Assembly: GCF_036321535.1 (NCBI RefSeq)
Contig: NC_087436.1
Span: 69,132,001-69,196,000 of the forward strand
From: Camelus dromedarius
Lineage: Eukaryota
Length of the DNA: 64,000 bases
Reading direction: 5' to 3'
Positions 14,538 to 64,000 of the stretch are shown piece after piece (position 1 is the first letter of the stretch; each line of letters begins with the position of its first letter). The notes under the pieces were generated by a model, which saw only the letters and a list, made by a program, of their open reading frames with translations, was not told where the DNA came from and ran no database searches. Both the position numbers and the translations under genes were made by a program.

Positions 14538-14617
14538 GTAAGAATAAAAATAAGTTGGATTTTAAAAACATTAATTATATTTGCATCTATATATTATGTT
14601 GTGATTTATTCCCTTAG

Positions 14618-15461: not shown

Positions 15462-15474
15462 TGTATTATCGTTT

Positions 15475-20257: not shown

Positions 20258-20342
20258 GCGTGAACTACCCTTCACTAAGTCGGCTCATCTCACTAACCCT
20301 TGGAATGAACATAAGCCAGTAAAGATTGGACGCGATGGACAG
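20258..20342 (+). CDS. YTHDC1: YTHDC1 exon 10 (85 bp)
   Basis: ttttag|GCGTG...GGACAG|gtttgt; [28 protein letters not shown]. Confidence 0.96.
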
Positions 20343-21324
20343 GTTTGTTGTTTTAGTTGATTCTTTAAAAAAAACACATATTTAATCAACCCTTTTAGAG
20401 ATCTTTATTGAGGGACATTTAAAAACCATTTTTGAAAGAACTTGGGAAAGATTAAGGGAAGATACTCTTATTTGGAGTTTGTGATCACTGTGATTATGAC
20501 TGATTAATAAAACTTCCATTAATATTGAAAGATAGGTAGCTTTATGTGATACTTTAATTAATACAATTGAAGGAAATTTTTTTTTGAAGAAAATTGACAT
20601 TATTTCAAATGGTTTTTCATTATATTTATTACGGTTTTAATAGATTCTGCATTTTGTATAATACATTTCAGAAATGCCATTTAACATCTTTGCTGAAGTT
20701 TTCTGAATAGAAGGAAGCTTTATGAAAAGATGATAAGTATATGTACTCAGATTTTCGAGTCTACAAATGAAATTAAAATAAATCCAGACCTGTGACCCTT
20801 ATGTTTCTACATATATTTTTGAACCAGGTTTTCATTGCTTATAAATGAAATGTTGGTAATTGAAAATAAAACTTAATTTTAAAAAGCCCATAGGTTAGTC
20901 TGCCTTTGTAGTTAATGTATTTCAGTGCATTTAGCTCTTCGTAATTACGAAAGTTGTTGACACACACCAACGTAAATGTTTTTCCCCCACTGTTAAGATG
21001 GATGACTTTGTCCTGATTCTTAAGTATTCTGCACAAAGAAATACTCCTTTGTTGCAGAGGGTGATTGTCACAGAGTTTTTTGTATAGTTAACTTTGGAGA
21101 TTTTACACTTTTAGTTTTTTACCTTTATATAAATACATGAAACACTTTTGAAAGGCTTTTTAAAACCTTTCACGGAAGTTTATCGGAATCTCATACAATC
21201 ATCAACCTCAGGAAGGAAGCCTTCAAGTCAGTCTGTTTTTCTTGTACATGAGGAAAATACAGCAAGTCTATTGAAAGTGTCTCCTCTTTTTTTCATCTTG
21301 TAAATTACTACTTTCCTATTTTAG

Positions 21325-21491
21325 GAAATTGAACTTGAATGTGGAACCCAGCTTTGTCTTCTATTTCCCCCTGATGAAAGTATTGACTTGTATCAGGTCA
21401 TTCATAAAATGCGTCACAAGAGAAGAATGCATTCTCAGCCCCGATCAAGAGGACGTCCATCCCGTCGAGAACCAGTCCGGGATGTGGGAAG
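21325..21491 (+). CDS. YTHDC1: YTHDC1 exon 11 (167 bp)
   Basis: ttttag|GAAATT...GGGAAG|gttaga; [55 protein letters not shown]. Confidence 0.96.
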
Positions 21492-23974
21492 GTTAGAAAC
21501 GTTCTTTGGACTGATAATAGGCACATGTGTCAGAATAACATGATGGAGGAATTTGATTCGTCAAAAGTTTGTCCTGCGGTAAAGAAGAAAGAGAAAATCC
21601 TCAAATCAAGCTGCATGGACTAGTTTGTGGCTTCATTGAGGATTTCACATGGTCTCACCTTGGTCTCAGTCATTTTTCAAGAGGAAAATGGGGATCTTTC
21701 CTAATGCAGAAAAAATTATTTGCTAAAGCATGATAACCAGTTTAGATGATAATCTCATTATACGATGTATACCACTGAAATGAGGTAGGCCTTTTTTGCT
21801 AAGAACAGGCTAGGAAGGAGGAAGAGGAGAAAGTCTTTATTTGCAAAAATTGTAATATTTTGTAAAAAGCCTTTTCTTTCAGGTGTGTCTCTGGATAACC
21901 TTATCAGATATGGGACTTTTATAAAGGATCACTAATATTTTTTCAGAAGATGCCGCCTCGTTTAGAGGATAAAATATTTTAAATTATTTTGATGTTCAAG
22001 AGGAGCATTATTGGGACTATTTCAGATTTTACCACCGTGATGTGTTAACCCCATTGTCAAATATTGTCTAACATGTACCCAGTGAATTCACACATCTTGC
22101 TGAGCTTCTGAAAACCATAGGTTCTTTCCAAAGGGGATCAAGTGGCCCTGGGAGACCCGGCAACAAACCAAAAAGAAGGGCTGTTGCTGTGTCTGTTTAC
22201 AACTTTTCCAGATGCTGGCAGTACCTGTGGACTTAAAAGTGTTTTTAGAGGATCGCCATGGTTATTGATCACTACTTTATGAACTAAACAGCATTTTCCA
22301 GGAAAAGGGGGTTTAACTTGTTACAGAATTGGAGAAGTTTTTGCAAAGGACTGATTTAAGCCCTTCTACCCAACACCTTCCCCTGTATAGATTTGCATAC
22401 AGCTAAATCTAAAATACTCTGCTAAAGACTGTTGGATGTATGGTTGATGATGGGATGAAACCTTTGGTTAAGTTTCCTTTTGATGGAAACATCCTGTGGT
22501 AGGTACAGATAATCCAACAAGCGTCCCTATTTCTTTGAGCTTAAGAAGGACACTGTCAATTAGGTAGGAGGAACCTGGCAGAGCCCCCTTATTTTTGGCC
22601 TAGAAGGACTGAACACCAAGATGTCTCTTGAAGTTTTAAGCTAAGAGAGTTCCAGTGCAATACAGTACATACAAGTGAAGTTTACCTCAGTTTTGCAATG
22701 GACTGTAAACCATACTTATTACACCACTACACCTTCTCTCAAGCCTGCCAGGGCCTCCATATTTGTATGTGGCTTACAGCTTAAAGTCAGTAGTTGGACT
22801 ACTTTATGAACTGTTACTATCATGTTTTATTCCGGTCGTAAATGCACTTCCCAAACTACAAGAAAGCGGTATGTTTATTTTTTAAACCAGTTTTTATTTT
22901 CTTAGTCTTATTTATTGTAGATGCAACTGTTTTTATTCTGTTGGGGGGCTTGGGTTTATTGCAACTTAGCAGTTTGAATTTGTGTTGCAAAAGTTAATGA
23001 AAGCAGTTGATACTCAGAGAAATAACTGGAAAACTAGTGATGTCAGGTTATTACAGAGTTTTTGATATTAAGGGTAGAAAGATATTTATTACCTTAAAAA
23101 CTTGGATTTTTGTTTCTTTTGTGTAGCTCTTTATTAAAAGCTAAGTAAAATGAGGTGTATTTAATGATGTATTTACGTTAACCATTAAGATTTATGGCAG
23201 ATAGTGAAGAGCAGCCCTCTGCAGAGAGTAAAGTTTGAACTTGTTGTATAAACTCTGTTAAACTCTGGCCCATTACTTGCCAGTATTATTTTTTAAGGCA
23301 TTGTCTCTGGAAATAAAATTCCCTTAATTCTTAAATGTTATTAACTTTAGAAATTAGTTTTTTGAAGTATTAAGATTTTCAAAACTTACCTGTAAAGTCA
23401 CTTTTAATAAGTGTCAAATTTTCTGTATGATCATGTGAAAAGTATAATTTTGTGCAAAGTAGAAGAAAAATATTAAAGAAGTCCTAATTCTTCAGACTTA
23501 GCCTAACATGACACTAATAAGTTTAAATATATAGATTTTGTAGTTAGTTATTGTGTAATGATGAGAGAGTTTTTCTCCCTCTCTTTTTACTTGAATGGAG
23601 ACTCTGAGAAAGTGTTTTGATTGCTAAACTGGATATTAACATTAGTTTGAGGGCAGCTCATTTACTTTTGTTTTGATTACTAAAATATGATTTACATATT
23701 TTGAGCAGATTACTCTTTGCAAGCGTCTCATCACAGCATGAGGATTACAGAGAATATCTTGTTTCCAGCAATACATCTAAGGATTGGTATATAGTAATTA
23801 ATTTGAGGAATTAAAATTTAGAAATTTTAAGATATTTGCTCACCAGAAATTAGGGTGTTATTTTAAAGGAAGTAATAAGCTATTCTTTGTACTTATTTTT
23901 GTCAGAAACTCTTGCTTGCTGTTTGTTCTCCCAGCAGTTTTTGGTTTAATTTCTAATGTGTCTAATTTGTGTAG

Positions 23975-24057
23975 GCGTCGACCAGAAGATTATGATATTC
24001 ATAACAGCAGAAAGAAACCAAGGATTGACTATGCCCCTGAGTTTCATCAGAGACCAG
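23975..24057 (+). CDS. YTHDC1: YTHDC1 exon 12 (83 bp)
   Basis: gtgtag|GCGTCG...AGACCAG|gttaat; [27 protein letters not shown]. Confidence 0.95.
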
Positions 24058-25314
24058 GTTAATATTTTATAATCCTGATGACTTGAAATTATTAAAAACA
24101 ATAACAGCAACAACAACACAAAAACTTCTGTCATGGGCCTATAGTTTTTAAAAGTGAGAAAACTTAGGATGTGACTACTTAAACCTTAGGAATTTATTAA
24201 TAGTTCTTAATAATTCTTCCTCTACTTTAAATTTGTTTAATCTATTCCAGTGTGACTCATTATCATAGTCTGTTAATTACCTGAAATTGCCAGTTTATAA
24301 TTATTGCACAAATGGAAACTGCGTATGTATTTTAAGATTAAATGTAGTTAGGGAAAGCAATGATCTTAACACTGTTAGGCTTTTTATTCTCTGGTACTTA
24401 GTATTTCATGTGGTATATAGCTTTAATTAGAAACTGAAATTTTTTTTTTAAATACAAGTATCTGACTTCCATGTTTATAGAGAGGAGTAGGAAGTACTTG
24501 GTTTGTAATCTAAAAGCAGCTTCTCAGTCTTTCCCTTACTAGAATCATAAAAGGCAAACTGTATTATTTAAAATTGTCAGTGATCCAATTATAAAAATTC
24601 AGCAGTTTGGAAATTGGTGTTCGTGAGCACTACAGCACTATTCCATCACAAGTGGCTTGATAAGCCTCATTCTTCTCTAAAATGGAATATTCCAGAGAGT
24701 AAAATTAATTTTACTCCCATAACTTGGCCACTCAGATTTTTTTACATTTTAATTTCCTGAGTCCTTATTAGAAGGAGATATGGGAGGGGGCGAATATTTC
24801 TCTTATCACCATGGTTCTTTCATTTAAAGTGTATATATCTTCATTTTTGCAACTTTTGTAATTTTGCTTTTCTTCCCTTAAGTTTGCATTTTTTAAAACT
24901 ATCTATGATTGATTCAGAAAGGCTTCTGTATACTCAAGGTGGAAGGTAAACATTTGTTTTAAGAAAGTCCTATTACAGTGTCCTCAAGATAATTCCTCTT
25001 CCCTTACCTTTATTATGGTGCAGCATGAAGAAATTTCTGTCTAGCAAGAATTGGGGTGTGGATTTAGAAGATCCATATGAAAACCTCTCTAGCAGTTTAT
25101 AATTCTGTGATATCAGTAAGTTACTTAGTTACTTCCTAAATTATCATGTAATCTGAGAAGAAAATCTGAAAATGGAATGATATGTAATAGCATCATTTAA
25201 TAGCATCACTATATTTCATGGGAGGAATTGAAATGAGTGGTAAGGAAGGTTTAATTATAATGCCATAATAAAAAGTATAAATTTGATATACTAAAATGCT
25301 TGATGTTTGAACAG

Positions 25315-25351
25315 GGTATTTAAAGGATCCACGATACCAGGAAGTAGACAG
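25315..25351 (+). CDS. YTHDC1: YTHDC1 exon 13 (37 bp)
   Basis: gaacag|GGTAT...GACAG|gtaggt; (G)YLKDPRYQEVD. Confidence 0.94.
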
Positions 25352-25447
25352 GTAGGTTGGGTTCACTCTTGCTTAGTTTTGAATTACATTCTTGGAACTA
25401 GTTTATGAATTACCTGAATTTAGTTTCACAAATCTTATTCCCAACAG

Positions 25448-25487
25448 ACGATTTTCAGGAGTTCGCCGAGATGTGTTTTTAAATGGG
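25448..25487 (+). CDS. YTHDC1: YTHDC1 exon 14 (40 bp; 64 bp from alternative acceptor at 25424)
   Basis: caacag|ACGAT...AATGGG|gtaagc; [13 protein letters not shown]. Confidence 0.94.
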
Positions 25488-25594
25488 GTAAGCATTTCAT
25501 TTTTTATATTTAATGTATGTAAAATCAGGATCTGATTTATTTTGTAGTTCTGGGTTTTTTATTTACTTATTGACATTATCATCTTTCATTTTAG

Positions 25595-25657
25595 TCCTAC
25601 AATGATTATGTGAGGGAATTTCATAACATGGGACCACCACCACCTTGGCAAGGAATG
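25595..25657 (+). CDS. YTHDC1: YTHDC1 exon 15 (63 bp)
   Basis: ttttag|TCCTAC...GGAATG|gtttgt; [21 protein letters not shown]. Confidence 0.95.
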
Positions 25658-26617
25658 GTTTGTATTCTATTTTTGCAAGTTATTTTACTTCGTTTGCAGT
25701 TTGATTATTACAGTTACCCATTAAGAGACTTAAAATACGTATCTTTGAGGACAAATAACTGCATGCTGTTTTTAAAACTCAAGACTCATGAATGATTTGA
25801 TTTGTATTAATAGTACAGGCTTAACTGACAAGTCTTATGATTTATTATTGTAGTGGTAGGTAGTGCAAACTTTAGGTTCAAACACCTTCTCTTCACAAAT
25901 CTGACCTGGACAAGTTTCATAATACTTTTTTTTTTTCCTTAGTTTTCCTTACCTGTAAAACTCAGTGAGCATCTATTTATTCTTTGGCTCATCAAACTTA
26001 ATGTTTAGTATCCACTCTTTGCAAGGCACTGTGCTTTCTCTGGGTATGCATTGGTGAATAAATTGGACGTTATGCCTATCCTTGTATGTCTTAAAATTTA
26101 ATGGAATAATGTCAGCCTCATAGGAAGCTTAATTTGCAAAATACATGTAAAATTTATAGCCTAGTGCCTGACTCTAATATTCAGTAAATTTTCTGTTTAA
26201 GATAAGGTTAATTAAACCTTGTTTCTAAACTTTTTTTCCTTTATTTAAGAAAACTGGATATGCTTTTTAGAGTATATTTTGAGATACTGAGGATAGCTGA
26301 AGCATCAATTCCTCAGAAATAAAAAACTTGGAAGTAGTTCTTACTGTTTCTTTCTTTTTAAACTTTTTTTTATTTTAAGTGCTGCCTTTAATGTGACCTT
26401 TACATCTGACTTTTGTTTCACTTAAGGTATTGTATACAGATAGATGAATTATTAATTTCTTTCCTTTAGATTCTATGAAATTAAAATAAACAAAGTATTT
26501 ATTATGTTGACGCTAACTAGGGGGAGAAGCACCTTTGATTTGTTCTTACTCATTTTATAATGGCATTTAAAAGTTTATTAGCTCCTGGATTTTTTTTTTT
26601 TTAAATAGATTTGTGTA

Positions 26618-26830
26618 CAATGGTTAGGATGACTGATTCCAGAGCCAGAGTGCTTAATGCTGTGTCTAACTTCCACTCCTTTAATAGCAATGTGATCTTA
26701 AGCAAATTACTTGACCATTTTGGTGCCTCAGTTTCCCCTTTTGTAAACTATGATTATGTAATAGTACCTATCTGGTAGGGTTGCTGTGAGAATTAAATGA
26801 GATGTGTGAAGTGCTTAGGATAGTGCCTGG
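26618..26830 (+). mobile_element. MIR SINE
   Basis: MIR core gtgatcttaagcaaattactt...gtgcctcagtttccc...gggttgctgtgagaattaaatgaga. Confidence 0.8.
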
Positions 26831-27121
26831 TTCATAGTAATCAATGTGTAGTAACGGCTTGCTATGTCTATTAGAATTTAAATAATATGTTAAAAAGTAT
26901 AAGCATGTTAAATCTTACAAGATATGTATCCAATTGGATAGTTTATTGCACATGTGTTTTCAATAAGCAAATACAATATTGTGAACAATCCTAATACCAT
27001 CAAAGTGGAAGGCTAGTACAGATTAAATTGTTTGGGATGGGTGGTTTGGATAGGGGAATTCTAAAAATGGTTTGTTTACAAGGGTGTTTGGTAGATGCTC
27101 ATGGAAGTTTTCTTTTTTTAG

Positions 27122-27256
27122 ACTCCTTATCCTGGGATGGAACAACCTCCACACCATCCTTACTATCAGCACCATGCTCCACCTCCTCAAGCTCATCCCC
27201 CTTACTCAGGACATCACCCAGTACCACATGAAGCCAGATACAGAGATAAACGAGTA
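27122..27256 (+). CDS. YTHDC1: YTHDC1 exon 16 (135 bp), Pro/His-rich
   Basis: ttttag|ACTCCT...CGAGTA|gtaagt; [45 protein letters not shown]. Confidence 0.95.
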
Positions 27257-29304
27257 GTAAGTGCATAAGAAGGCAGAGATGTGAGGGATCTACTTATAAT
27301 TCTGTAGAAAATTTAAATGTGGGGTATACCAGGGCACGTTGAGTGGTGGAATGTTTCATATTCTTACTGCTTACTGCAGACTTTGAAGCAGTTCACGGTT
27401 TGTTTTTACTAAAAGTGACTAATCCCATTTAACTAGACTATATTTCTTTCACTGATCAAGCATGAACTACTTAGGTTGAGGCAACTCCTACATACAACTT
27501 TCAGGTAATGTCCTAGTGATATAGCAAACTAGGTAGTGTCCTAAAGATACCATAAACTAGGATGTTTTCTTTTTGTGCTTGGATCTTTAAATACAACTCT
27601 GTAATTAATATTACAGATAGGTATTTCTAAGCTCTATATATTCTGGCTGACTCAATTTTCGTACGATAGATGGTATATATTTAGTTAATAGATAAACTCT
27701 AATCTCATTTAGTCATTTATTTCTGGTTCTACCATATTTTGTTAAAGCTAGTAATCAAATGAATTATTTCACCTCTCTGTCTCTTGATTCTTATGATGAT
27801 ACAGCAAATGACAAACAGATAAGAAGCAATGCAGCAGAAAAGTAATTGTCTCTTAATAAATTTTGGTTCCAATAGTTGATATGAAAGCTTTTTTTCAGTA
27901 ACTTCAAAGTAGGATGAATGAAAGACAGTCTCCAGTTTGAGATTTCTGGGTCTTCAACATAGTAGTTGGGTCGAGTTTGTTTCTTAAATGTTATGCACGC
28001 ACACGCGCACACACACTCTCTGACTCTGTGCTGGGCCACATAAACTCCTTTTATCTTCCCAGATGGTGAAGGGCTTGCATATTTGAGAGGGCCCGTCAGA
28101 GCAGTAGTTTCCTAGCCTGTCATTGAGATACTTTGGTCTGTCATTTATTTCGTTATCCTTATACAGATATTAATCCTTCAAAATAAAGTCATACTAGAAC
28201 TTTCAATATTCAGTAAAACAGTCTGTGAATATTAATGACTAATAGACTTTAGTGGGGTTTTTTTTTTTTCAGTCACAGAAAAAGAAATATACAGCCTGTG
28301 TATGATGAAATCTTAGTTAACTAGATTACTGGGTTGTGTTTAAAAAAAATCCCTTTTGTGAATGATCATATTATTTTCACAATAGGAAGTTTTCCTGAGA
28401 TTCTTTTACAAAATATACTCGTCTTTTTTAACAAGTTCTGTTTCGTGCACATTTATGTGCTTGCTTTTTGGTTAGTATTTATGTTCCATGCTCACGTAAT
28501 ATTTACTTATTTATTATATATGAAAGGTAATGTGGAATTGTTGAACCTTATATCCTGTATATTCCAGCTGACTTTTGAAGAGACCAAGTTCAGTAAGTAG
28601 AGTTGAGCTGCGAACTAAGAGTAGAAAGCCCAGAGGAGGTGTCAGACTTAGAAGTAGCCGCATGGCACCTTTGCACCTCAGTTGCTTAACCTTACCCTTC
28701 GCTGTCCTCCTCTACCTTTTGTGGATTATTAGCTCTGTGTGGAGTAGACTCCACAATCTTACTGCAGTACGTATTTTCTCAAAATTCTATGAAATGCCTG
28801 AACTGTTTGTTATTAACAGTGATTTAGTTTGAGAGAAAATCCAGAATGGAAAAATTCCTAATTTCACCTTAAGAGGGCAGAGTTGGCTTAGTTTTAGTTT
28901 GTAGAATCAAAGGAGGAAAAACAGGGTTCACCATGTTGCAGAAAAACATTGATGACATTTAATGTAATTGGCAACATGTATTCATGTCTTGATCATGTGG
29001 TTGATGGTCCCCACTAGGTGATTATTTTGGCCTAAATCTTATTAAAGGGATTGGATGGAGAAATTAAATAGAAAACTAACTACATGAAGTAATTTTTAAC
29101 GAGATTTGAATAATCCTCTGCTGTAGGTGTCTAATGAGTAAGACATCAAAATCCTTTTTCTAAACAGCGTCAGAATTACATTCTGTGAATTAATGCATAA
29201 GTATATTTCTCTAGATTCTTTCTCTCTACCAGACAATTATAATAAAGGGACTCATAAATTCCATTTGATTTTGACATACCATACCCATTTCTTACCTTTT
29301 TTAG

Positions 29305-29529
29305 CATGATTATGATATGAGGGTGGATGATTTCCTTCGTCGAACACAAGCTGTTGTCAGTGGTCGGAGAAGTAGACCCCGTGAAAGAGATCGGGAGCGA
29401 GAACGTGACCGTCCTAGAGATAACAGAAGAGACAGAGAGCGAGATAGAGGACGTGATAGAGAAAGAGAAAGAGAGCGATTATGTGATCGGGACAGAGACC
29501 GAGGGGAGAGAGGTCGTTATAGAAGATAA
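29305..29529 (+). CDS. YTHDC1: YTHDC1 exon 17 coding part
   Basis: ttttag|[37 protein letters not shown]...RGRYRR, then TAA; ORF 29317..29529. Confidence 0.97.
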
Positions 29530-44198: not shown

Positions 44199-45449
44199 CT
44201 TCAGAAACTGATAGATCAAGCAAACAAAAATTAGTATGAAAGTTGATTTTTTTTGGCAACAAAAGTAACAAGATTTATCTTTTGAATCCTGCAGCTCCAA
44301 ATAGAGTGTATGCATTCTTTTCAGGAGCACACAGATGTAACATTTTATAAAAATTGACCTTAGGCAAGGTCACAAATGAAATCTCAGCAAATTCTCAGTA
44401 TTTATATAAGACATCTCTGACTATAGTGCAATAAAATTTCTAAAAATAATTAAAAAGGAATGCCCCATCCTCGAAATACACACTTAAGAGTTCCATTCAG
44501 TGTAGTGGACTGAGCTGATTATAAACGACTCAACCCTCCCCACTTCTGCTTCAGTCGCATGTACATCTTGAAGAAAAGACAACATAGGACAACATACACA
44601 GCCAAATATGCTAACAATTTATGGATATCCTCTTTTGGTTTCATAAGAGGAAATTGCATGAATAAATGATTGTAGGAGATATACAACAGTAGTTTGGAAA
44701 GGAATTAAAAAAGATAAAGACATTATCAAATAAGGATCAAAATTTACTCTGTCTACAGAATGCAGTGACTATAGGCTAAAAAAATTATATGGAAATGGTC
44801 ATCCCCTAGACCCCAGCAGAGGCAATCAAGAAACCATTCTGAAGGGATGCTTTTACAATACAAGACATGTGGAATATTTGAAGAAATCAACACCCATTGA
44901 AGATTAATTCATGAAAACCACATGAGGAAATAACCAACCATACAAAACAGGGTGATTAGCACCCACGGTTTTTAGATAGAAAAAAAAATCAGGATGAGCT
45001 TTTTAAAGTAAGCACATTTAACATGTTCAGAGATGAAGCAGTTAATAAGCATGGGTATGGGTGGGATGGTTGAATATAAAAAGAACCATTTAGAAATTCT
45101 AGAAATCAGAAATACACTCATTGATTATACGAAATAAAATGGGACTGAATGGAAGATCAAAAGAATGAACAAGACCAGCTATAGAGAGAATTAGCGCATT
45201 TGCTTTCTTGACTGAACCTCAGCTGATAGAGCCCCCTAGACCTAAAGGCTCTAGGAATTTTCAGTCAACTGATTAGAATGTGTGTTATTTGCTAACACCT
45301 TACATCAGAAGCCCCCTGATTATCTGCTGTGCTTCTAAAGCTCTCGTTTCTAATTGTTTTCCTGGCCTTATTTCCCCATCCTGTGCTACTCTGCAGTATT
45401 TGTGATCTGATTCAGTGTGTTTGCCTCAGTTTTTATTTCCTTCAATCCT

Positions 45450-45936
45450 TGTCATGGGATCCAGTGGGCCAGTGAGAAGACAGTAAAAGAATTTACCAGA
45501 GATGAAGGAGGAGAGTAGTAAAGAAGTTTATTTGGTACGCTGCCACAGACAGCAGTGGGCCAGACAGACGAGAGGTGCCTGTGTGTGCCCTGATGGTGAA
45601 AGCTTAGGGTCCTTTATGGGGAGGGGTTGGTGAACACAATGGGTTGGGGGCTGTGTAATCAGCTCATGCACAAGTTTCTGATTGGTTGTAGATGAAGTGA
45701 GGAAGTTAGGGTCCATGAAGGGGCAGTGGGATTTATGACTCTGAAAAGGATATGTGGGTCAAAACAAACCAGCCCGAGCTATTGTGAGAGTAGCCCATTT
45801 CCTAAGGCTATTAATGCTGCTGGGCAAACACAAGTCAGGAAAGAATGTACTTTAACTTTTGAGGGATTGCAGGCGGACACCTGGGAGCCCAGGAATGGGG
45901 ATTGTTGGACTTTGAAGGGTGCCAGTTGGCCTCACA
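45450..45936 (-). repeat. 3' LTR
   Basis: Direct repeat of 54023-54509; preceded in viral sense by PPT-like AGGGGGAC (45937-45944). Confidence 0.95.
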
Positions 45937-46189: not shown

Positions 46190-47877
46190 AGTGTATCTGC
46201 CTCTAATCTCGTGAAACTTGGATCTCAAAAAAAGAGACAATCATTTTTGTAAGAAAGGGATACAAGACAAAAATACATATACCAAGATAAACAGCCAGTC
46301 CTAGTAAAAGTATGGAGAGGAGTAATTTTAAAATGCCTAGAAATAAGGACCTTATTCCGTCAGGGATCCAGGAAAAGACACTGGAAAACCAGTCAATGAC
46401 CTGTTTGGTGAGTACTGTAAGCACTGGCATCCCCTTAAGTGTTTATGTGAGTTTGTAACTGGGTGAGGAGAGTAGAAACTTTACCTAACTCGTCAGGGAT
46501 GTAAGTACAGCACTCAGTATGTATTACTTAGCATGTGCAAGTCTTACATGCAGTTTCGTAAGACTCTCCTCATTCGGATCATCTCTGTATTGAATAAAAA
46601 TGTAATTTCCTTGGCATCACTTAGTGCTTTTTGTGTAAATTTTTCTAGAGCTTCTAGACGAAGGGTTACATCCTCTAACCCAGCTGAGGGATATATAGAG
46701 TTTAGTAAGTGATTGTAGCATTGGAAAACTGACCTGGTCCGCTGAGCACGTAACAGGGGAGGTTGGCTGTTTTTGCACTCTGGAGTGAGGCCCATATATG
46801 TACCTGAGCCCAGGGGAAACCGAATGTGCACTGGCCAATCCACACGTTTAGCAGCCAAGGCCAGAGATTGGACTCATACATCCATTTAGTTCCATTGAGG
46901 GCCAGGGAATCTGGAATTTGTGGATCCAGTTAGTTCCAAACCAATCAGACTACTTGAGATATACAGTCGCTCCACATGGTCTGAGGATGTCCATCTAACA
47001 TGACTAGTGAAATTTGGCCAAGTATCATGGGAATGATTTCTTTGTTCCCAACATAAGGGAGTGGGTGCAGCTGAGCCAACCATATTCGGGAGTAAGCCAG
47101 AAAGTGCCATCCCGTATTTGGGAGTACCTGTCGTTTCTTCTCTCTAGGCGTGGTGGAAGTTTCCAAGACCAGTCTCCCTGACGTTTTAACTAGGTCATCG
47201 CTCATTCCTGCTGAGAATAGGTCTCATAAACGGAAACAAAAAATTATGCCCTGGGTTTGATTATGTAAAATTAATTTTCCACATGAGAGGGTTCCATTCA
47301 CTAACGTCTGGATCATTTAAAATACTGTCAATCTCTCTGAGCCCCTGTATGAGCTTTGCAAGTTGGATCCAATAGGACCCCTGCAAAAGGGAAACCCACG
47401 AAGGGAGCCCCAAAAATCTGGAGACTGGCAGTTGGCCACAGATCCGGAAATTGGAGTAAACACTTTAGCATAGGAAAAAGCCCATCCCCAAAAGCTGTTT
47501 CCTATAACAGTAAGGGGTGAAGTAAGAAGGAAAATCAGAACAACTGGGTGTCATATTTAATATTCTAAGTAAAGATTAATTTCATCAGGTGTAAAATCAG
47601 AAGTCACCTTGAAGATATAGATCAGGAATTAAATCTGTAAACTGTTTCAGAAAAAGAAAGAAGACCTTAAACGGGAATTTCAGTTAATGTTGAAAGAATA
47701 ATGTCATAAAATAGGGCAGGTCGAGAACTTAGTACCAGTCAGCACAAGGATGGGAAGTGCAGGGATTAGCAAGGCTTGGAGCAACAGAAAGTAAGAAGTA
47801 TAATAAGACAAAATGCTACCAGGAATAGCTAAGGAAACAAGGGCCACTGATGGGGTTAGCCAGCAGGTGGCGCCCAT
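46190..47877 (-). pseudogene. env: env remnant
   Basis: Furin-like RAQRTR; LEALEKFTQKALSD; decayed ISD region MRRVLRNCM*D; C*VIHTECCTYIPD (CX6CC); hydrophobic TM in ORF 46203..46430; many stops. Confidence 0.85.
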
Positions 47878-47880
47878 GAG

Positions 47881-50800
47881 TTAGGAATTGGGATTCAGAG
47901 CACCAGGTTTTCTCCTGAACAACAGGCAGAGATCCTCCACAGGTTCGCAGCTGTCGGCGGTTTTTGCTGGAGACGCCTCAGCCACTTCTAACGGCAACGG
48001 GGCGGCAACCTCCATGCGGGGCAGCTGGACCCAAGAAGCAAACCCGTTGAACCTGACTGCCGTAGGGCTGGTTAAAAGCACCTGATGCGGTCCGGCCCAA
48101 GCCAGCTGAAGTGGCTGTTTATCCTGAGGGAGAATTTTAAAGTAAACCCAACCCCAGGGTGGGGGAATTTTGGCTGTGAGTTTCCCTGAAAGTTGGGGAT
48201 CAGGCTTTGGACTAAATTTATCACAATATTCATGAAGAGACTTAACATTCTGGCCTGAAGTTATTGGGCGAGAGAATGATTTCCAGAATCTATTAGTAAA
48301 TGCGTCTGGAGAAACGGCCGGCCGGAAAGGAGCTCCAAACGCTTAAATGTGTCTGGCTTGGGAGCCGTCCGCGCGGAGTGAGGCGGCGGGAAGAAGAGCC
48401 GGCAAGATGGCGGAGTTTCCTCCGCGGGCGTTTCCTTACAAGGCTCTCAAGGGTCTGGTGGGCCTTTCCACGCAGCCTGAGGCCTGGGGTAAGTCATGTT
48501 CAGTCTGAAGGGTTTCTGGCACTCTTTGTGTCATCTATGAAGCAAAGCTGAGGCCCATATCCGATTGTAGCAAAGGAGGCAAACCAAAACGAGGGACGTA
48601 TGTTCTGTCAAAGCACTATTTCCCTCTGAGGCCCTTCAGTTTGAGTAGATAAGGCCTCAGTCCATCCAGTAAACGTGTCAACAAATACCGAGAGATATTT
48701 TAAGCCCTTACAAGGAGGCATGTTGGTGAAACCTATCTGCCAGTCCTCTCCGGGTAAAGTTCCTTATCTCTGAAGGGGGTGTAATGAAGGAGGCGGCTTC
48801 AAAGGGCGCCCTCGGCATCTGTCCGACAGCGAGGAAGGCGGGCTCGAGGGATGTTACGTATTGTCCGGGAAATCACTTTTCCTACAGAAGTGAGTGGTAT
48901 TGAGGCCTGTAAGGCTTTGGCCCCAAGGTGTGTGATTTGGCGAAGGTTGTGTAACAGCTTCCATTGTAAGGCCCCTGGAAGCAACAGTTTACCCTGTTTT
49001 TAAACCATCCTTCTGGGGTAAAGACGAAGCCTGTCCCTGTTGCCTTTTGGATTTCTTCCTCGGTGTGATGTGGAGTGAGAGGTGTAAAGGCTGGACGAGG
49101 GCTGCCTGTGTGGGGAGTTTTGCTGCTTCCCTAGCCTGTTTATCTGCCCTATTTCCTTGGGGGATTTCGCCGTGTCCCTTTTGGTGTGCTTGACAATGAA
49201 TTATTGCCACTCGTCGGGGGAGCACGACGGCTTCTTGTAAAGCCACGATTTCTGGGGTGTGTTTTATTGGAGTATTTTGTGCTGTGAGGAGACCTCGTTC
49301 TCGCCAGATGGCAGCATGGGCATGAACAACATGAAAAGCATAGGACGAGTCTGTGTAAAGATTTAGTCTCCTATCAGCTCCAAGTTGTAAAGCTCTGAAT
49401 TCTGCCTTTGGAGCTGAGGTGGAGCCCCATGGAAGCGGCCCCGATTCTGTAACCTCTGTGAGCCTTACTGCTGTGTAGCCTGACAGCCTTACTCCATTTA
49501 AAATAAAACTACTGCTGTCAGTAAACCGTGTGTCATCTGGATCGTCAATGGGTGTATCTGGAAGGTCCTGCTTGGCTGGGCAAGTTACTTCTAGCATTTA
49601 GAGACAGGAATGTTCCAAAAAGGAGTTAGAGTTGGGGTTAGGAAGTAGGGGAGCAGGGTCTAATGTTGCGTTCGGGGGTTTCTAAAAATAGAGTTTGGTA
49701 TTTAGTCATTTGGCTGTCTGAAATACAGTGAAATGCTTGGGGGTTTTGGATGTCTAAAACTTGGTGGGGGTATAAATGGTCATCCCCTGTTCCAAGGTTA
49801 ATTTAGATGCTGCTTCTACCTATAAAGCTGTAGATGCCAATGCCCTGAGGCAAAGGTGCCATCCTTGAGAGAAGGATCCAGATTTTTGGATAAATAGGCT
49901 ACTGGGTGCTGAGTGGGTCCCAAGGCTTGGATAAGGACCCCCAAGGTGACACCTTACTTTTCACATATGAATAAGAAGAAAACCTTTTGTAAGTTTGTCA
50001 GGGCCAGGGCTGAGGCCGTTGAAAAAGCTTCTTTAAGAGTTGTCAAGGCCCGGTTCATTTCTGGGGTACATTCTGAGGGCTCATTTTCTGGTCCTCGTAA
50101 GGCCTCATAAAGGGATTTAGTTATGAGGTCAAATTGGGGTATCTAAGTTCCGCAAAACCCTGGCACGCCCAAGAAAGAACACAGCTGTTGCTTGGTTGTG
50201 GATAACTCCCATATCTAAGATTGTCTCCTCTGAGTTGGCAGACTTTTGGTTACTGCGGTTAATATGAGTTTGAGGAATTATACTTCCTGTGCAGTTATTT
50301 GGGCCTTAGAGGGAGAAACTTTATATCCATTGGAGGCCAATTTTTGTAACACCATGATAAGGTTAGAATTTGAGGATTCCTTCTCAGGGCTGTGTATCAG
50401 CAAGTCATCTATGTATTGAAACAAGGCACTGCCTGCAGAGAATTATAAAGTGGAAAGATCCAAGCAAGTGAGGGCTATCCTTAAGTCCCTTGGGCAGAAC
50501 TATCCAGGTTAGTTGTTGGGGATCTTGGGTTTCCAGATTATGCATTTGAAGGCACAGAAATTAAGAGTCAAGGTGAACAAGGGTACAGAAAAAGATGTCT
50601 TTAAGATCCAACACTGTGTACCAGGAGGTCTCAGCTGGAATTTGTCCCCAAAGAGTGTAGGGGTTTGGCACAATGGGATGGACAGGAATTACAGCCTCAT
50701 TGATAGCCCTAAGATCTTGAACCATTCTAAATGCTCCATCTGGCTTTTTAACCGCTAGAATGGGGGTGTTACACGGAGAGTTGCAGGGGCTTAATAGACC

Positions 50801-51050: not shown

Positions 51051-51385
51051 CATGCTCTGGCAAGTGGCCCTTTGCTTGGAGCTTAGTCATAATATCTCTG
51101 CCTAACAAGGGAGTGGGACATTGAGAAAGAACAAGGAAAGCATGTGTAAAAACAATTTTCCTAGTGTACAGACTAATGGTGCAATAAAGTGGCTTGTTTA
51201 TGGTTGGTTGTCTATACTGGTGAGGAGGCTTGAGTACTAAAAGATTGGACCAGAGAAATTAAGGCAGAGTGCGTGGCTCCTGTGTCAGCTAAAAATTCAG
51301 CCTTACCACCTGCCACATCCAAGATCACCCAGGGCTCTGCCATTGAGGTAGAAAGCATGGGAGCCTGCACAGCCTCTGGGGCCCT
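51050..51385 (-). pseudogene. pro: pro remnant (aspartic protease)
   Basis: EPWVILDVAGGKAEFLADTGATHSAL and PLLGRDIMTKL; in frame directly after the gag TGA at 51386-51388 (readthrough type). Confidence 0.9.
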
Positions 51386-53103
51386 TCAGTCAAGGATAGA
51401 ATTGTAATCATCGCCGTCTTCGTAGGGCTCTTCATGATTGAGGAGCAGGGTCAAGGGCATCTGCTGGCCAGCCACAGGCTTAAGCCGTGGCGAGGGGGTC
51501 TGGAGTGAGGATGGCCCTCTCCCACGAGGGAGAGAGGGACAGTCCCGTCTCCAGTGTCCCTTCTTCTTGCAGATGGGGCGTGGCCCTGCAGAGACCTCCG
51601 GTCTTGGCTGATATGTCCTGGTTGTTGGCACTGGGACCAAACAGGAGAGGGCCCAAGAGACGTAGGCTCTTTCTTGGGGGCCGGTGTCCCGTAGGGCCTC
51701 GGCTGAGTTGAACCTGGCAGGGAGTGGGCAATAGTGGCTGCCATGTATTTAGCCTGCTGCTTGTCTCTTTCTTTGTCCTTTTTGCCTGTTCAGCCCACGA
51801 TATTTCCTCCCAGTTGTTGAAAACCTTAAAGACTGTCTAGTAGGACAGGAAAAGGAGTTTGTGGTCCCTGTTCAAGCCACTGAAGTTTATGTATAATGTC
51901 GGGTGTGACTTGGCTAATGAAATGGACTGCAAGAATGGAAGGTCCTCTGTGTTTTCTGGGTCAAGATTTGTATATTTTGTCATTGCCTCTGCCAACTAGG
52001 AATGAAAAAGGGCTGGATTTTCATCTGGTCCCTAGGTAATTTCCCTCAGTCTGGTATAATTAACAGGCTTAAAAGTGACCTTCTTCATCCTTTCTATTAA
52101 ACAAATAATCATGTGATTATGGTATTCCCTCCTGGTGTTCCTCTCTTGATAAGACCACTGGGGATCTGAGTCAGGGACTGCTTCCTTCCCAGACCTAGAT
52201 GAACCTCTAGATCTAGGATTTTGGGTGGCGTGAGCATGGACCTTGTCAGCCCAGCTCTGAGCCGAGGACCAAATGTGAGTTTTTTCTTCATGTGTAACAG
52301 GTGGTGAAAATAACAAATATGTCCTGCCAGGTCAGATCAAAGGCTGTGGTGAGGGCCTGAAATTCCTGTATGAAGTGAGAAGGGTTCTGGCTAAAAGAGC
52401 CTAATTTGTATTTGTGGGAGACTTGGCAGAGGGAAAGGGACGTGGACCTGAATCGTGCCCACTTTGCCATTAGCAACCTCAAGAAAGGGTAACAGATTCC
52501 CTTGCTTTGAGGCTTCTGGAATAGTAGTCTTAACTGGGGATGCTGGTCCTGTTGTGTCAAAAATAACACCTGCTCTAGTATGTGGTGGGGAGAAGGGATT
52601 CTAATAGCAAGGAGGGATCGGGGAGGAGAAATAAGAATCTGAAGAAGTCCCTGAGTTAGAGGCCATTGGATGCAATGAAGGGTACAGAGAAGGGAACTGA
52701 TTATTGTTAGGAACCTGGGAAAGTAAAGGGTCATCTAGAATATCTGGTTGCTGTTAGATGCTGGTGAGCCAGAGGGTGGCGATGCCTCTAAGTATTGGGA
52801 AAGAGACATGCAGCAATTTTTACAGAGATCTGAATCTTGGGAGATGGCCATAAAGGCATGAACATAGGGGACCTAAGACTGTTTGTTCAACTTGTGACAG
52901 AAGAGATCAAACTGATAGATGGTGTTATAGTTTAGAGTCCTATGAAGGGGCCAAGTCTCCTGATCTGGGAGTTGGTACTATGGCCAGGTGGTAGAGAGAA
53001 AGACAAGACATCTTTTCTTTAATGTCTGGGGATCAAACTTATGGCAGTTCTTTAAAATGCAGCCCAAAGGTGAGTCCTGGGGGATTGAGAAGACCTGCCC
53101 TAT
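51386..53103 (-). pseudogene. gag: gag remnant
   Basis: Start mutated to ATA, then GQVFSIPQDSPLGCILKN; capsid LGSFSQNPSHFIQEFQALTTAFDLTWQD; knuckle ICKKKGHWRRDC; disrupted. Confidence 0.9.
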
Positions 53104-54001
53104 AGTGATTAGAGGAGGAGAAAAGAAAACACCCACAAAGGGACTGTCAAACCCGTAATCTGGGGCATCACATCAGAAAAGAGAAGCCTGTAGCACTAGG
53201 GGCCTACGGAAATGTTAGAAACAGAAGAAAGGACAGGGAGACTCACCAAATTGAGGCTTCTGTCTGGCACATGATGGTCAAAGACAGGAGGCTTAGCCAA
53301 TCTGCAGGTATGATCCACAAAAAGCGGAGAGAAGACAGAGGTGCACCAAATGGGTCAGGCCCGAGAACTAAGAAGTGTTTCGATAGCCAAGGCCAGAACA
53401 AGGGAAAGGTGGAGGGAAGGGAGTAAGAAGAGAGGGAAGATGAAGTGGGTATTGGGCCAGATGGTGTGCTGCCTATGAGGGGGCTCCAAGTGCTGTGACA
53501 CACTGAGTCATCCCCACCTTGTATGGGTCTGGGGCCAACCAGGAGACAGGGTCCTGGGTGTCTCAAGGCACTGGATGACTAGTCCTTATGTGTGCCTTCT
53601 CCAATGAGAGAGTCCTTTCTGACCCAGGGATGGAGTATGGAGTGAGATTTGCATTCGCCTTGGGGGCTAAACATCCAGTCCCATTTGTTAGACTGCATTT
53701 CAGGGCTTGCTGAGAGTAGCCCAGCCAGAGCCCACCAGTCACTGGTGAGACTTTGGGGAAGTCCCGAACTCTAGGAAAAGGCAGGAGAGTAAGAGAGAGA
53801 ACAAAGCAGAGAGAGAGAGGGAAGGAGTATCCCTGCCTAGAGAACAAAGCCTGCAGGGAAGCCTTTCCTGACAATGGGACGTCCTAAATGTTCTCCAACC
53901 CTCCGCACTCCCAAGGGAGTCTGGCGCAGAGAAATGCCTAGGAGCTTCTGATCAATCCAGGGAGAGCCCCAGTAGGAAGAAGGGAGAAGAGAGATATCCC
54001 G

Positions 54002-54019
54002 TCTCTGTACAGGCCACCA
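54002..54019 (-). promoter_or_regulatory. Primer binding site, tRNA-Ile(AAU)-type
   Basis: TGGTGGCCTGTACAGAGA, 3 nt after the 5' LTR; 15/18 match to TGGTGGCCCGTACGGGGA (recalled tRNA-Ile 3' complement), two mismatches at CpGs. Confidence 0.8.
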
Positions 54020-54022
54020 AAA

Positions 54023-54509
54023 TGTTGTGGAATCCGGTGGGACAGTGAGCAGGTGGTGTAAGAATTTACAAGAGACAAAGGAGGAGAATAGTAAAGGAGT
54101 TTATTTGGTACGCTGCCACAGACAGCAGTGGGCCAGACAGACGAGAGGTGCCTGTGTGTGCCCTGATGGTGAAAGCTTAGGGTCCTTTATGGGGAGGGGT
54201 TGGTGAACACAATGGGTTGGGGGCTGTGTAATCAGCTCATGCACAAGTTTCTGATTGGTTGTAGATGAAGTGAGGAAGTTAGGGTCCATGAAGGGGCAGT
54301 GGGATTTATGACTCTGAAAAGGATATGTGGGTCAAAACAAACCAGCCCGAGCTATTGTGAGAGTAGCCCATTTCCTAAGGCTATTAATGCTGCTAGGCAA
54401 ACACAAGTCAGGAAAGAATGTACTTTAACTTTTGAGGGATTGCAGGCGGACACCTGGGAGCCTAGGAATGGGGGTTGTTGGAAGTTGAAGGGTGCCAATT
54501 GGCCTCACA
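54023..54509 (-). repeat. 5' LTR
   Basis: Minus strand carries CCAAT box (AACCAATCAG 54251-54260), TATA-like CATAAA (about 54186-54191) and AATAAA (54100-54105). Confidence 0.95.
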
Positions 54510-59044: not shown

Positions 59045-59324
59045 CTACTCCCTTTTTTCCTTCTTTCCTGGTATAGGAAATTTCTTGCAGCAAAACAGAC
59101 AACATTTTGTGATGACAAAGAGAGCAACTGCCACACAGACCAGCAGGAACCCAGTCACATCCAGAGAGTGGTACTGGCACCAGGTGAGGTCGTGAGCGGC
59201 TGGCCGCAGGTGCTTGGCTCCTTTGTGGCGCATGACAAACTCGATCCAGAAGACTGCTCGGTCCAGGGGCTTTATAGGTTGATCGTGTTGAATGGTTGAT
59301 AACCTCATAGCATTCTGTTTGTAG
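59045..59324 (-). CDS. UGT2B-type UDP-glucuronosyltransferase, last exon (280 bp coding)
   Basis: cttcag|[47 protein letters not shown]...TM helix...KKEKRE then TAG (dilysine ER signal); paralog not assignable. Confidence 0.96.
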
Positions 59325-61296
59325 CTGAAGGAAAAGCAAATAGACATCAATTTTTACAATAAACTAAGAAAGATACATATGTGGAATCTTCATGCATATG
59401 GTAAAAATGAGTGCCACATCAAGTGGAAGAAAAATAGATTATTTTTCTCAGAGATGATTATAGAGATCTTAGCTTATGTGCTAGAATTTGTTGAATGCAT
59501 AGAATTTCAAGCTATGGAGAAAAGAGAGAAAATAGGATAGGACAGGTATTTGTAGCCAAAAGAATGGAATGAATTAGGTCCTGATGTGAAAAAAAAAAAG
59601 AACAATAGAAAAGATGTACATGATTTGACTGTTCAAAGTTTGTACTGTCTAGTAAGGAATTGTTAATAGACCTGTTGGACAAGTTTTAAAATACTATCAT
59701 AATGCAGAGATAGGAGGAAAATCCATATTGAGATTCAGAGACATGTCCAGCTGGGGCTGGTGAGCAGTTGGTATTGAGCATTAACTGGTATTTATCTTCT
59801 ATTAGTGAAGTGGTGGTTAAAAGTTGGAAGTGATTGCCTTGTTTTGAATCTGACTCTGACATTTGCCTTGATGCCTGCTTTATTATTCTTCTTTCCTCAG
59901 TTTTTCACTGATAAATAGGATGGATAGGAATGGTATCTGATCTGATTATTTGGAGGAATAATATATCGATTCTTAAGTATTCCTGGCATACAGTAGACTC
60001 TTAGTAAACGTTTGCTAGTATTGGTGGTGTTTTTCTTGTGAGTGATTTTAGAATCTGGCGAGTGCTCAACATTTCACTTTCTGGCATTGCAGTTGCATTT
60101 GTTTCTAGTGTTGGAATGACTATGGACTAACAGACAAGGAGGAAGGGAGGAATAAAGAGATATGGCTCACAAACTCTAAATCACAAAGTGCAGTAGCATG
60201 GCACTGAAACAATAACAAGGAGGTAAAATCTCTTTGTGTTCTGTATAAAGCACAGGAGGAGCCTTGGGTTTTTCAGAGGAGACACTTATGTGACATTTTT
60301 GTAATGCAATAGGGAAACACTACTATGAAGAAGGTACTTAATATATGCAAAGGACTTAATACAATGTGTAGCATATAGCAAACATTCTGTATCTAGCAGC
60401 TAATAAATTATCTTCATTTTTGATACCAGCTTTACATTATTAAAAATCGAAAGTGGTATAAGTATTCCACAGGGTTGCAATTTTACATTAAACAGTTACT
60501 ACAAATTTTGGCTGTATTCCCATTGTTGCTCATAACATATTTGAGCGCATATTGCATCCAAAGTTTGTATCTCCTAGTCCACCACCCTTATGTTTCCCCT
60601 CCCACTTCACTGGTGTTGTGTAGCTTTTTTTCTGCATCTGAAAGTCTGCTAATATTTTGATCTCATCCCTGATAAAAGGAAACAACTAAATCTTTCTAAT
60701 TTACCCAATAATGACTACTTAGATACTACTTATGAATGTAGGTATATTCTTAGTTTTTTTGGTTTTACTTGTTTTTGTCTATTTATAAGACATATGTTGG
60801 TATATTTCTGTTTCAAAGAGATAATATTTGGTTTCCAAATCATTTGAGGATTTTTATGAATTTTGATATTATTATTAATATTATCATAACTATTGTATGT
60901 ATTTTCTCCCTTTTGTTTCATAATGACTTTATAAAGAAAACATTTTGAGAATGTGTTGGTAATAATAGCAATGGGAGAATAATGCAAAGGGAGAAAATAT
61001 TTACATATAAATCCTCTTAATCCTTATGTTACCATTTCAGTGACTCTTTTCATTCTAATGATTAGCTCTTTCAAAATTTCTCCATTTTCCTTAAACCTCT
61101 GAAGAAGCTATCCACTAAAACCACTGAAACAAACTTTATGTGACACTCCCAGTAGGCTATTGTAGACTATTCAAAGCCCTGTGCAACTCTTACTCTTCAT
61201 TGTGTTTATGAGAAGATACATTGCTACCTCCCTGGCCTCCCTATGAGAACTTCTCTAGACAGAGTATGTAGTAGAAAAATATACATGTATACTCAC

Positions 61297-61516
61297 GAAG
61301 GATTATTAATGACTTGGTTCAATGCATTGAGCAAATCTGTTGTTGACATTTTACTGAAGTCCAGCCTGACAGCTGCCCCCTTGACTGTCATGCGAGCGAT
61401 GTTATCGGGTTGGTCAGCAAACAAAGGAATGCCCACCATAGGGATCCCGTGGTAGATGGCCTCATAAATGCCGTTGGTTCCACCATGAGTTATAAAAGCT
61501 TTGGTTTTTGGATGAC
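61297..61516 (-). CDS. UGT2B-type exon 5 (220 bp)
   Basis: cctag|GTCATCC...CCTTC|gtgagt; [42 protein letters not shown] (UGT signature). Confidence 0.96.
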
Positions 61517-62611
61517 CTAGGATTGAGTGAATTTCAGTAAAATGATTAATTAATGTTAGAAATCAAATGAGAACTGGCCATTACAAGGCAGTGAAAGAAG
61601 CAGTGTCCTTTCGATAACAGATGATTATACACATGAAACTGCATTTCAACTGCTTTCAGAACTCAGATCAGGAAGCCACTCAGTCTGCTGGAGAGGGAAG
61701 TGAAGCCTTCATGAAAGGAGTGCTGTGTGAGTTGAATTCACAAATGTACTCCAGATTGTCAGGTGAACAAATGGAAAGAACATTCTGGGTAAAAGAAACC
61801 ACATGAGCAATTAAGGGTGAGAATATGTCAAAAATATAGTCTCTTAAGGAAATAGACATTTAGTCTGATAGGAAGGGTGTCAAGGCAACAGGAAAGATAA
61901 CGGTCGTGACACTGAGACCAGAGGAAGGAAAAGCTGCATTTTATCATGAAATGTGTTACGGCTTCATGAAAACAATTCTGAAGTATTTTCCTATAGAACA
62001 TGGGGAGTCACTGGTAATAAAAAGGAGCTGCTGTATTTCAGGGGCATTTAAAATACCCATAAGATGGGAAAAGAGAGATGTATGGAGAGAATTTAGAGGC
62101 AAAGCGATAATCCAGGATGTTCTTGATAATTTTACTTAGAGAAATAATTACAACCAATATAAAGATTCTGTCCATAATAGATGTGACTCTTTAATAAAAA
62201 GCCACCTGTTACACAGAGAACAAATTTACTGATACCTGGGGTAAAGGGGGGTGGAAAGGGATAAGTAAAGAATTGGAAATTTGCACCTCTTGGAGAGTGA
62301 TCTAAATGTTGGCCATCTTGATTGTGTTGGAGGTTTTATTGGTGTATACCTCTATCAAAATTCATCAAATTGTACATCCGAAAAACATGTAGTTTACTGT
62401 ACAGGAGTCGTACCATAATAAGGGTGTTAAAAAAAAGCCGACCTTTATATTTTATTTGTTTTCCCCTAGGACAGGAAAGAACAATGAAGATTCAGAGTGT
62501 TCCTTTTGCATGCTTGAGTAATAAGTGCTGAGTAAGTTGGTTTCTTGTCCCAGTGCTCTCACTCCCTCAGCTGTTACTCTTGTTTCCAGCATTTGTTCTC
62601 CCAGGTCTCAC

Positions 62612-62699
62612 CAAGAAGGTCGTTCTGGGGGATCCACTTATACAGCCGAGTATTGGGTCCTAAGGTATCTGGTTTCTTGCCGTTGAATCTCCAAAGAAC
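62612..62699 (-). CDS. UGT2B-type exon 4 (88 bp)
   Basis: aacag|GTTCTT...CTTCTTG|gtgaga; [29 protein letters not shown]. Confidence 0.96.
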
Positions 62700-64000
62700 C
62701 TGTTAGGGTGAAGTAGATAGCTTATTCATGAGTTGAACTTCAAAGTTATAGCACGTTAGAATTCTAAAGAGATGAAAAGACATCCAGTTAAATGCCTTCC
62801 ATACGACAGGTCAGGAAATGAGGACAGCAGATCCTAAGTAGGGATGACTAGTAATGCACTGACATCAATAGGAATACCCACATTCTGTGTACTTATTTTT
62901 ATGTTCAATCAGGTATGGAATGAATCATGACATTTCACACATGATGTTATTGACAAACTTCTCAATGACAAATTCAAGTATTTGGGAAATTGTTAGGTAT
63001 TCTTGATTCTAGTGAATTAAAACAGTGGCAAATTAGTAATAATCTTCACATTTGTTTTGATTTATTTTATATACTAGCACTCATTTTCAATTTTGGTATC
63101 CACTGGTTTATTTCTTTTTCACTCATAAAATGGAGTTTACTTGTATCCAGTCATTAATATAACTTTTTTTTATCAGTTTTATATCTTTTGATTTAGTAAA
63201 AGGAAAATGCCTACAGTTAGTCACTTAAGAGAAATATTTCTGCTTATTTATAATTTATTAATGATAAGATAATTAATGCTGCTTAGGAGGTACAACTTCT
63301 TTTAGATTACAAATTGTTAAGCGCCTCTTCCAAAAAAAAAGACAATTATTGTTTTTTGATGTAAATCCAGATTATTGCCACTATTAGTAGCTCTGAAAAT
63401 TTTTAAGTTTAGAAAAGAGGAGCATGTTGGTAATTTACAAGTAACAATAAGGCTGTTGAAAAAGCTCCAAAATAGGGATACTAAAATTTATTCAACTGAC
63501 CCCGAACACTTCAACAGTGAAGCACAATGCATTGACAGCAGTGGTTAATGTGGTTTTTATACTCAATACCAAAATAAGATACCTATTTTGGACTTCCTAG
63601 CAATTCTCATAAGCTGGATTATAATTTAACTGGTGTTTCATTTCTGTTTGCTATGTGAATGAAATGACTAAGTTCTCAACAAAAAATTAGCATAGGTGTT
63701 TGTGAGAAGACCACAATATCGGATAGTAAAAAGTAGTTCGTAAATAACAAAAGATCCCAGGTGTATTTTATTTACTAGAGAATAAGTTACTATATAATAT
63801 GGAGAAGGAGGCAGCAGAATCTTTTCCATGCCAGTCTTCCTTATGTTTGACTCTTGCCCTTCTCCCTCCTCAGTCAGGAAGAGTAACCTGATAGGCTGGA
63901 AGCAGAGTTCATTAAGGTCCACACTTTATAATGCATAGGATCCACCTTAAGGGCAGGACCCCATCTCCATCCTTTCTCTTTCATCTTCCTGCTTTAGGCT

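Follow-up and report, generated by a model that had tools for sequence, protein, structure and literature searches.

The locus and the provirus within it

We have analyzed a window of 64,000 nucleotides from the genome of Camelus dromedarius, this being the whole stretch of DNA under study. A provirus lies on the minus strand between a gene on the left and the last exons of a UGT2B-type gene on the right, with the order LTR-gag-pol-env-LTR (Table 1). We take the left-hand gene to be YTHDC1 from its YTH domain and from its exon peptides; it is on the plus strand facing the UGT2B cluster, presumably an inversion of the arrangement in human. YTHDC1 has a CpG island of its own, 2.5-3.5 kb beyond the left edge of the window.

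On the evidence of its sequence the provirus is a class I ERV, with paired LTRs, a target duplication, RNase H and an MLV-type integrase tail. Its primer-binding site resembles the tRNA-Ile type and may place the provirus in the ERV-I-like group. Upstream of the C-terminal piece the integrase contains frameshifts and stops. A small CpG cluster (46050-46140, 10 in 200 nt) sits close to the 3′ LTR, where env ends. At the opposite end a leader segment (53527-53643) is 80-85% conserved across many ERV copies, and its core of 32-35 nt is exactly common to three of them; this segment is possibly a structured or functional element.

Table 1. Features of the provirus and its surroundings, in positions of the window.
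Feature	Position	Strand	Remarks
YTHDC1 coding exons	6589..29526	+	context gene
Target-site duplication, 5 bp	left 45445..45449, right 54510-54514	.	4/5 letters alike
3′ LTR	45450..45936	-	minus-strand AATAAA at 45527
env region, broken, approximate limits	46200..47877	-	longest ATG-started ORF 86 codons
GT-AG intron, 904 nt	46224..47127	-	joint 47128^46223 in X1 and X2
Integrase C-terminal piece	47881..48342	-	Pfam MLVIN_C, E 1.5e-6 (28.2 bits, just below the cut-off of 29.2)
CpG island, likely bidirectional promoter	47915..48490	.	576 bp, GC 0.55, obs/exp 0.70
Peak of CpG and weak-to-strong substitution	48301..48495	.	weak-to-strong vs reverse 30:6
ETS/GABP core CCGGAA	48322..48327	+	lacking in two nearest copies
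E2F-like motif GGCGGGAA	48385..48392	+	altered at 48388 in X2 and X7 RNA contigs
YY1-type motif AAGATGGCGG	48404..48413	+	overlaps ATG 48407; lacking in two nearest copies
Splice donor GGG/GTAAGT	48486..48494 (48488/48489)	+	fork point of X2 contigs
RNase H piece of pol	48989..49597	-	Pfam PF00075, E 2e-15
gag region, broken, approximate limits	51300..53250	-	ORF pieces and homology to C21 copy
Primer-binding site	54002..54019	-	
5′ LTR	54023..54509	-	paired with 3′ LTR
Last exons of UGT2B-type gene	59075..62700	-	converge on provirus

The two LTRs are 96% identical, with 22 differences in 488 columns. Taken at face value this would indicate a young insertion, a reading ruled out by the clustering of the differences, of which 16 fall in the first 75 nt (21% different) and none across a run of 297 nt, and by four family LTRs that are 80-85% alike to both proviral LTRs. 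The insertion is therefore probably older than the LTR identity implies. The identical 297-nt run is likely to reflect gene conversion between the LTRs, and such a homogenized tract would make LTR dating misleading here, with 96% identity understating the age. At 5-10% neutral divergence, and with the CpG turnover found outside the island, the survival of methylated CpGs would be ~8-29%, a rough figure. At 54100-54105, the position of the minus-strand poly(A) hexamer, one LTR allele has another letter in the X1 and X7 RNA contigs described below.

A CpG island within the integrase

A first-pass annotation of this DNA placed a CpG-rich promoter candidate at 48301..48495, inside a dead integrase. 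Our count confirms 17 CpGs in 48301-48480 (GC 0.63, obs/exp 0.99), and reading frames and Pfam agree that the minus strand here is decayed integrase. The segment is also internal and non-LTR, as had been stated. At the provirus-wide obs/exp 5.5 CpGs would be expected in the peak (P = 6e-5), and when the 140 internal CpGs were placed uniformly none of 5000 trials gave 17 in any 180 nt. The YTHDC1 island reaches 26 per 180 nt. The density of ~6 CpG per kb that had been given for gag holds in 52000-53200 (5.8/kb), but rises to 11.5/kb in 51300-53300.

CpG islands are defined leniently as at least 200 bp with GC ≥50% and obs/exp ≥0.6, or strictly as at least 500 bp with GC ≥55% and obs/exp ≥0.65. 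While the peak is real, the CpG-rich feature is wider than first drawn: 47915-48490 is an island by the strict definition, with limits that were optimized to pass, and the domain 47930-49550 (GC 0.51, obs/exp 0.60) is one by the lenient definition. The island ends at the splice donor, and the 48301-48480 peak is its top. It lies 2.4 kb from the nearest LTR, which is not where an LTR promoter would be located.

The CpG density is specific to this locus, as had been anticipated. The homologous 180 nt holds 0-5 CpG in 11 of 29 related loci (anchor score ≥35) and 0-3 in 14 weaker alignments, and the remaining four were unaligned. No internal paralog exceeds 75% identity over long stretches (best 63-75%; the counts are lower bounds). 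The nearest copies, C21 and C31, are 63-74% alike by segment and were used as two outgroups, with substitutions counted at columns where they agree over the span 47853-50348. C31 is a poor CpG control, since it has GC-rich surroundings and a large CpG island ~1 kb away (L047-L048). The C21 copy (L045 6001-7250) has an insertion of ~600 nt within its integrase, and its own cluster of 14 CpGs in 250 nt at the neighboring integrase end; a second internal island is possible there. A metagenome match (L053) was discarded, being 21 nt shared by chance with a gene of a bacterium.

GC-biased gene conversion raises the rate of weak-to-strong substitution and lowers the reverse rate. In the peak the two classes stand at 30:6, compared with 149:156 in the rest of the span (p = 7e-5), and alignment with MAFFT gives the same skew (32:9 in the peak, 182:194 elsewhere, p = 4e-4). 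The skew is present outside CpG context (19:6 in the peak, 123:135 elsewhere, p = 0.01) and at codon positions 1 and 2 (13:0 in the peak, 41:39 elsewhere, p = 5e-4). Ten of the 17 peak CpGs are new with respect to C21 and C31, facing neither CG nor TG/CA, four face TG/CA and three are shared. The skew and the new CpGs together indicate that the island has been largely gained, and it looks to have been built in place rather than retained, in a manner that GC-biased gene conversion would fit. In the available portion of PMC11161765, GC-biased gene conversion at hypomethylated promoter-like hotspots is described as building GC-rich islands.

Part of the GC content may predate the insertion, arising in replicating virus, because the rate of weak-to-strong change is greatest at third codon positions (17/25 versus 30/120, p = 8e-5). 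That excess would also fit a GC- and CpG-rich element which was carried by the infecting virus and then kept, whether it was a promoter within the virus or a stretch of integrase acquired by recombination. So would the neighboring cluster at 47860-48100, where five of the 13 CpGs are common to the C21 copy, and the lack of a close internal paralog with which to date the change. Yet a working integrase would be expected to resist change at positions 1 and 2 of its catalytic core, precisely where we count 13:0, and C21 and C31 share no more than 2-3 of the 6 letters of the ETS motif and 5-6 of the 10 letters of the YY1 motif. We consider import by the virus quite improbable, and favor gain after insertion.

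The annotation had further supposed that the segment escaped germline methylation. This survives at best by half, since most of the CpGs are new when set against C21 and C31. Escape should also have reduced CpG turnover, and no such reduction is found. Comparing the window with the RNA contigs of run X2, we tallied 34 of the listed differences, all of them beyond the LTR and flank. Of the listed differences, those of CpG type occur at 2/18 in the peak, as frequent as the 6/80 outside, and at 5/66 in the wider domain. If these regions were unmethylated the expected numbers would be ~0.09 for the peak and 0.6 for the wider domain (P = 0.004 and 4e-4). The CpG is present in the RNA allele at nine of 11 CpG-type differences, whose direction is not polarizable, and one difference breaks the E2F-like motif in the expressed allele. 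Germline protection seems incomplete, because island CpGs still differ between the reference and the RNA donor. The long-term CpG excess speaks for protection, and most likely that protection is partial or has recently weakened.

Motifs, reading frames and RNA

The motifs that had been listed for the plus strand are all present: the CCGGAA core, GGCGGGAA, AAGATGGCGG, the ATG and the GGG/GTAAGT donor. CpG-island promoters typically have a YY1 site over an ATG just downstream of the transcription start; a literature search produced no paper directly on this trait. When the 195-nt peak was shuffled 5000 times by dinucleotides, and with motifs picked after the sequence was seen, the ETS core occurred in 1094, the E2F-like motif in 153, the GGTRAGT donor in 129, a loose YY1 motif in 22 and the exact YY1 10-mer in five. 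Thus the YY1-type 10-mer is the only motif rare in shuffles, and the ETS core is common. The GTAAGT hexamer of the donor is also present in the C21 copy, and immediately before the donor there is a gap of 11-15 nt with respect to both nearest copies.

From ATG 48407 the frame is open for 27 codons up to the donor, and stops after 33 codons if unspliced; there is a further in-frame ATG at 48347. Other open frames are short, with at most 62 codons on the spliced minus-strand form and 83 on the unspliced plus-strand form. The antisense peptide has no match among proteins of 71-2000 aa, which is a weak test, and a protein search with the integrase tail gave no match. Both RNAs are probably non-coding.

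Words from 48250-48700 occur in 14 RNA or likely-RNA runs from four studies, at fractions of 0.24-0.67. Four of the 24 listed runs (X1, X2, X7 and X21) were placed on 45950-55000. The contig runs X1, X2 and X7 differ from the window at ~0.5% of sites and share alleles, from which the RNA donor is likely a close relative; no reads of the raw-read run X21 were placed on this interval. Contigs give no start, strand or level, their depth is an unreliable gauge, and some of the pattern could be produced by 3′ bias.

On the minus strand, two of the four runs contain a spliced RNA in the sense of the provirus, which continues into the 3′ LTR and whose strand is given by the CT..AC joint. The splice lies inside the broken env; it is abundant, uses a strong pyrimidine-rich acceptor and is seen in two studies. 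The earlier reading had overlooked this RNA, as it had YTHDC1 upstream on the plus strand.

In X2 a contig covering 47128-48489 has a depth of 44.8, and the next one (48460-52185) has 13.3. The intron contig has a depth of 10 and the spliced joint 62. The contigs fork after base 48489, exactly at the GGG/GT donor, in this one run of the four. A plus-strand GT at 48488/9 predicts such a fork if the next exon begins with G. The extra depth in the fork bin is that of a 30-nt stub (× 21.6), and a depth of ~22 leaves at the donor. There are 11 GTRAGT hexamers in 8 kb, from which we estimate a chance match of fork to donor at ~0.2%. No shared 20-nt match at the fork was found among 54 other loci compared.

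Other origins of the fork were considered. A minus-strand env-type acceptor was rejected, since no GT-AG and no GC-AG pair fits and there is no fitting donor in the next 20 kb. Minus-strand AT-AC introns, a rare class, provide 87 geometric candidates and could still account for the fork. Both LTRs carry a minus-strand 5′ site that is minor-spliceosome-like (54321-54328), and this misfits the fork.

No joint leaving 48488 is among those listed, and no acceptor was found within 45950-55000. A candidate acceptor at 53543, the only one of 156 geometric candidates to coincide with a contig start, was dropped. An exact match of 32-35 nt covers 53540-53571 in three ERV copies (L055-L057), so that the contig break there is explained by shared sequence and is no longer evidence for an acceptor. 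The spliced transcript that had been proposed from 48488 has therefore gained a fork at the predicted base, but neither a start site nor an acceptor; no start was found in the contig runs. Its supposed course towards the UGT2B 3′ end gains no support from the RNA placed on 45950-55000.

X7 has a break at 48469/48538 and a flat depth of ~7. Four of its six loose ends carry a 5′-library template-switch oligo on the plus strand (48538, 50644, 52359 and 52710), all downstream of the donor and none within the peak. A single oligo-A end is found at 47813, on the upstream side. The identity of the oligo is confirmed in the accessible part of 10.1101/2023.04.17.536840. Four RNA loose ends have no match in the window. 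X1 has no contig over 47983-48542 despite containing 0.67 of the sampled words of 48250-48700, and this hole is likely a filtered contig.

We infer a plus-strand RNA from the X2 fork and the X7 marks. Both RNAs seem to start within 47128-48489, because the depth is 10 left of 47128 and 13 right of the donor, compared with 62 at the minus-strand joint and ~22 leaving at the donor. This suggests a bidirectional promoter in that interval.

The same contigs could arise with no promoter at all. The plus-strand RNA would then be read-through from YTHDC1, which ends ~15 kb upstream on the same strand, or 3′ LTR antisense RNA, in either case meeting a cryptic donor; the minus-strand RNA would come from the 5′ LTR with 3′-biased coverage, and the GC peak would be the scar of an old recombination hotspot. 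Plus-strand marks in X7 on either side of the peak (upstream at 47813) with no start peak, CpGs that still turn over, and an X1 hole that might reflect the filtering of a contig which continued into conserved exons are all compatible with this. The X2 depths are harder to reconcile with it. Left of 47128 the depth of 10 is less than the ~22 + 13 at the donor, and no join splits 47128-48489, so that an internal exon would have to be at least 1.36 kb. For a minus-strand RNA from the 5′ LTR, the depth right of the donor is 13 and drops away into a gap at 52186-52378, whereas the minus-strand splice reaches 62. We regard the absence of a promoter as unlikely, and continue with a promoter inside the island.

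A stably unmethylated germline island driving a gene for a small protein, or an antisense gene that regulates UGT2B, would account for the donor fork, the good Kozak context and a plus strand that points to the UGT2B 3′ end at 59075. It is at odds with CpG turnover that is not lowered, with a peptide lacking a protein match (weak as that test is) and with the failure to find an acceptor once the 53543 candidate was dropped. We think it very improbable.

A proposed origin and its relation to known systems

We lean slightly towards an internal island, GC-converted within the integrase of an old minus-strand provirus, that serves as a promoter in both directions, for a pair of RNAs which are probably non-coding. 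GC-biased substitution after insertion would have produced the 576-bp island in the broken integrase. New sites, predicted to be of ETS and YY1 type, could recruit Pol II in both directions. The open and partly unmethylated site may have drawn recombination and GC-biased gene conversion, adding CpGs in a self-reinforcing manner. The plus-strand RNA would start in the island and exit at the 48488 donor, which may be the antisense reading of an integrase motif improved by the short deletion just before it. The minus-strand RNA would also start in the island, be spliced 47128^46223 and end in the 3′ LTR. The fuller version, in which an integrase-born CpG-island bidirectional promoter is opened by ETS and YY1, enriched by GC-biased gene conversion and active in reproductive tissue, where it would drive two divergent spliced RNAs between YTHDC1 and the UGT2B cluster, is tentative, and we rather doubt that every part of it holds.

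How new CpG islands originate is not settled, and the search for ERV promoters is almost always directed at LTRs. In the present case the island is in pol, its nearest relatives are without it and changes in each direction can be counted, whereby gain by conversion is separable from escape from decay. The related proviruses would represent the state before, so that the birth of the island is open to testing at each base. The internal part of an ERV is seldom considered as a source of promoters, and the candidate described here advises caution in passing it over. In open-access text we found no literature dealing with this locus, or with the rise of a CpG island inside an ERV integrase; the accessible text of PMC9604959 concerns another locus and provides no promoter precedent.

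As a class I (gamma-like) ERV the provirus is typical in its LTR-gag-pol-env-LTR order, MLV-type integrase tail and 5-bp target duplication, but it differs in that nothing in this genome matches its internal part closely (best 63-75%). The closest parallel to an ERV-derived transcript from a CpG island instead of an LTR is human HEMO (ERVMER34-1), which, in the portion of PMC8978518 available, is transcribed from a CpG island near env and not from the 5′ LTR. HEMO has lost its 5′ LTR, env is intact and the island is called 'cellular' in that portion, whereas the present provirus retains its two LTRs, has a broken env and contains an island traceable to integrase sequence.

ERV sequence that drives sense and antisense RNA is known from LTR and bidirectional ERV promoters, and the retroviral antisense promoters described in the accessible part of PMC10186651 lie in the 3′ LTR. 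LTR-derived promoters sit in U3, while our candidate is in pol. GABP drives two-way promoters, according to the part of PMC2077898 at hand, and GABP/YY1 bidirectional CpG-island promoters share with this locus a CpG island, a CCGGAA core and, probably, RNA from both strands. Unlike them, the island here is small and lineage-restricted, with no coding gene found on either side. The local weak-to-strong excess, including non-CpG sites, resembles that of GC-biased gene conversion at PRDM9-independent hypomethylated hotspots; those are known genome-wide at conserved promoters and not, in what is available of PMC11161765, as the birth of an island in a provirus. ERV-derived promoters are already known, and it is the internal, non-LTR position that would be new here.
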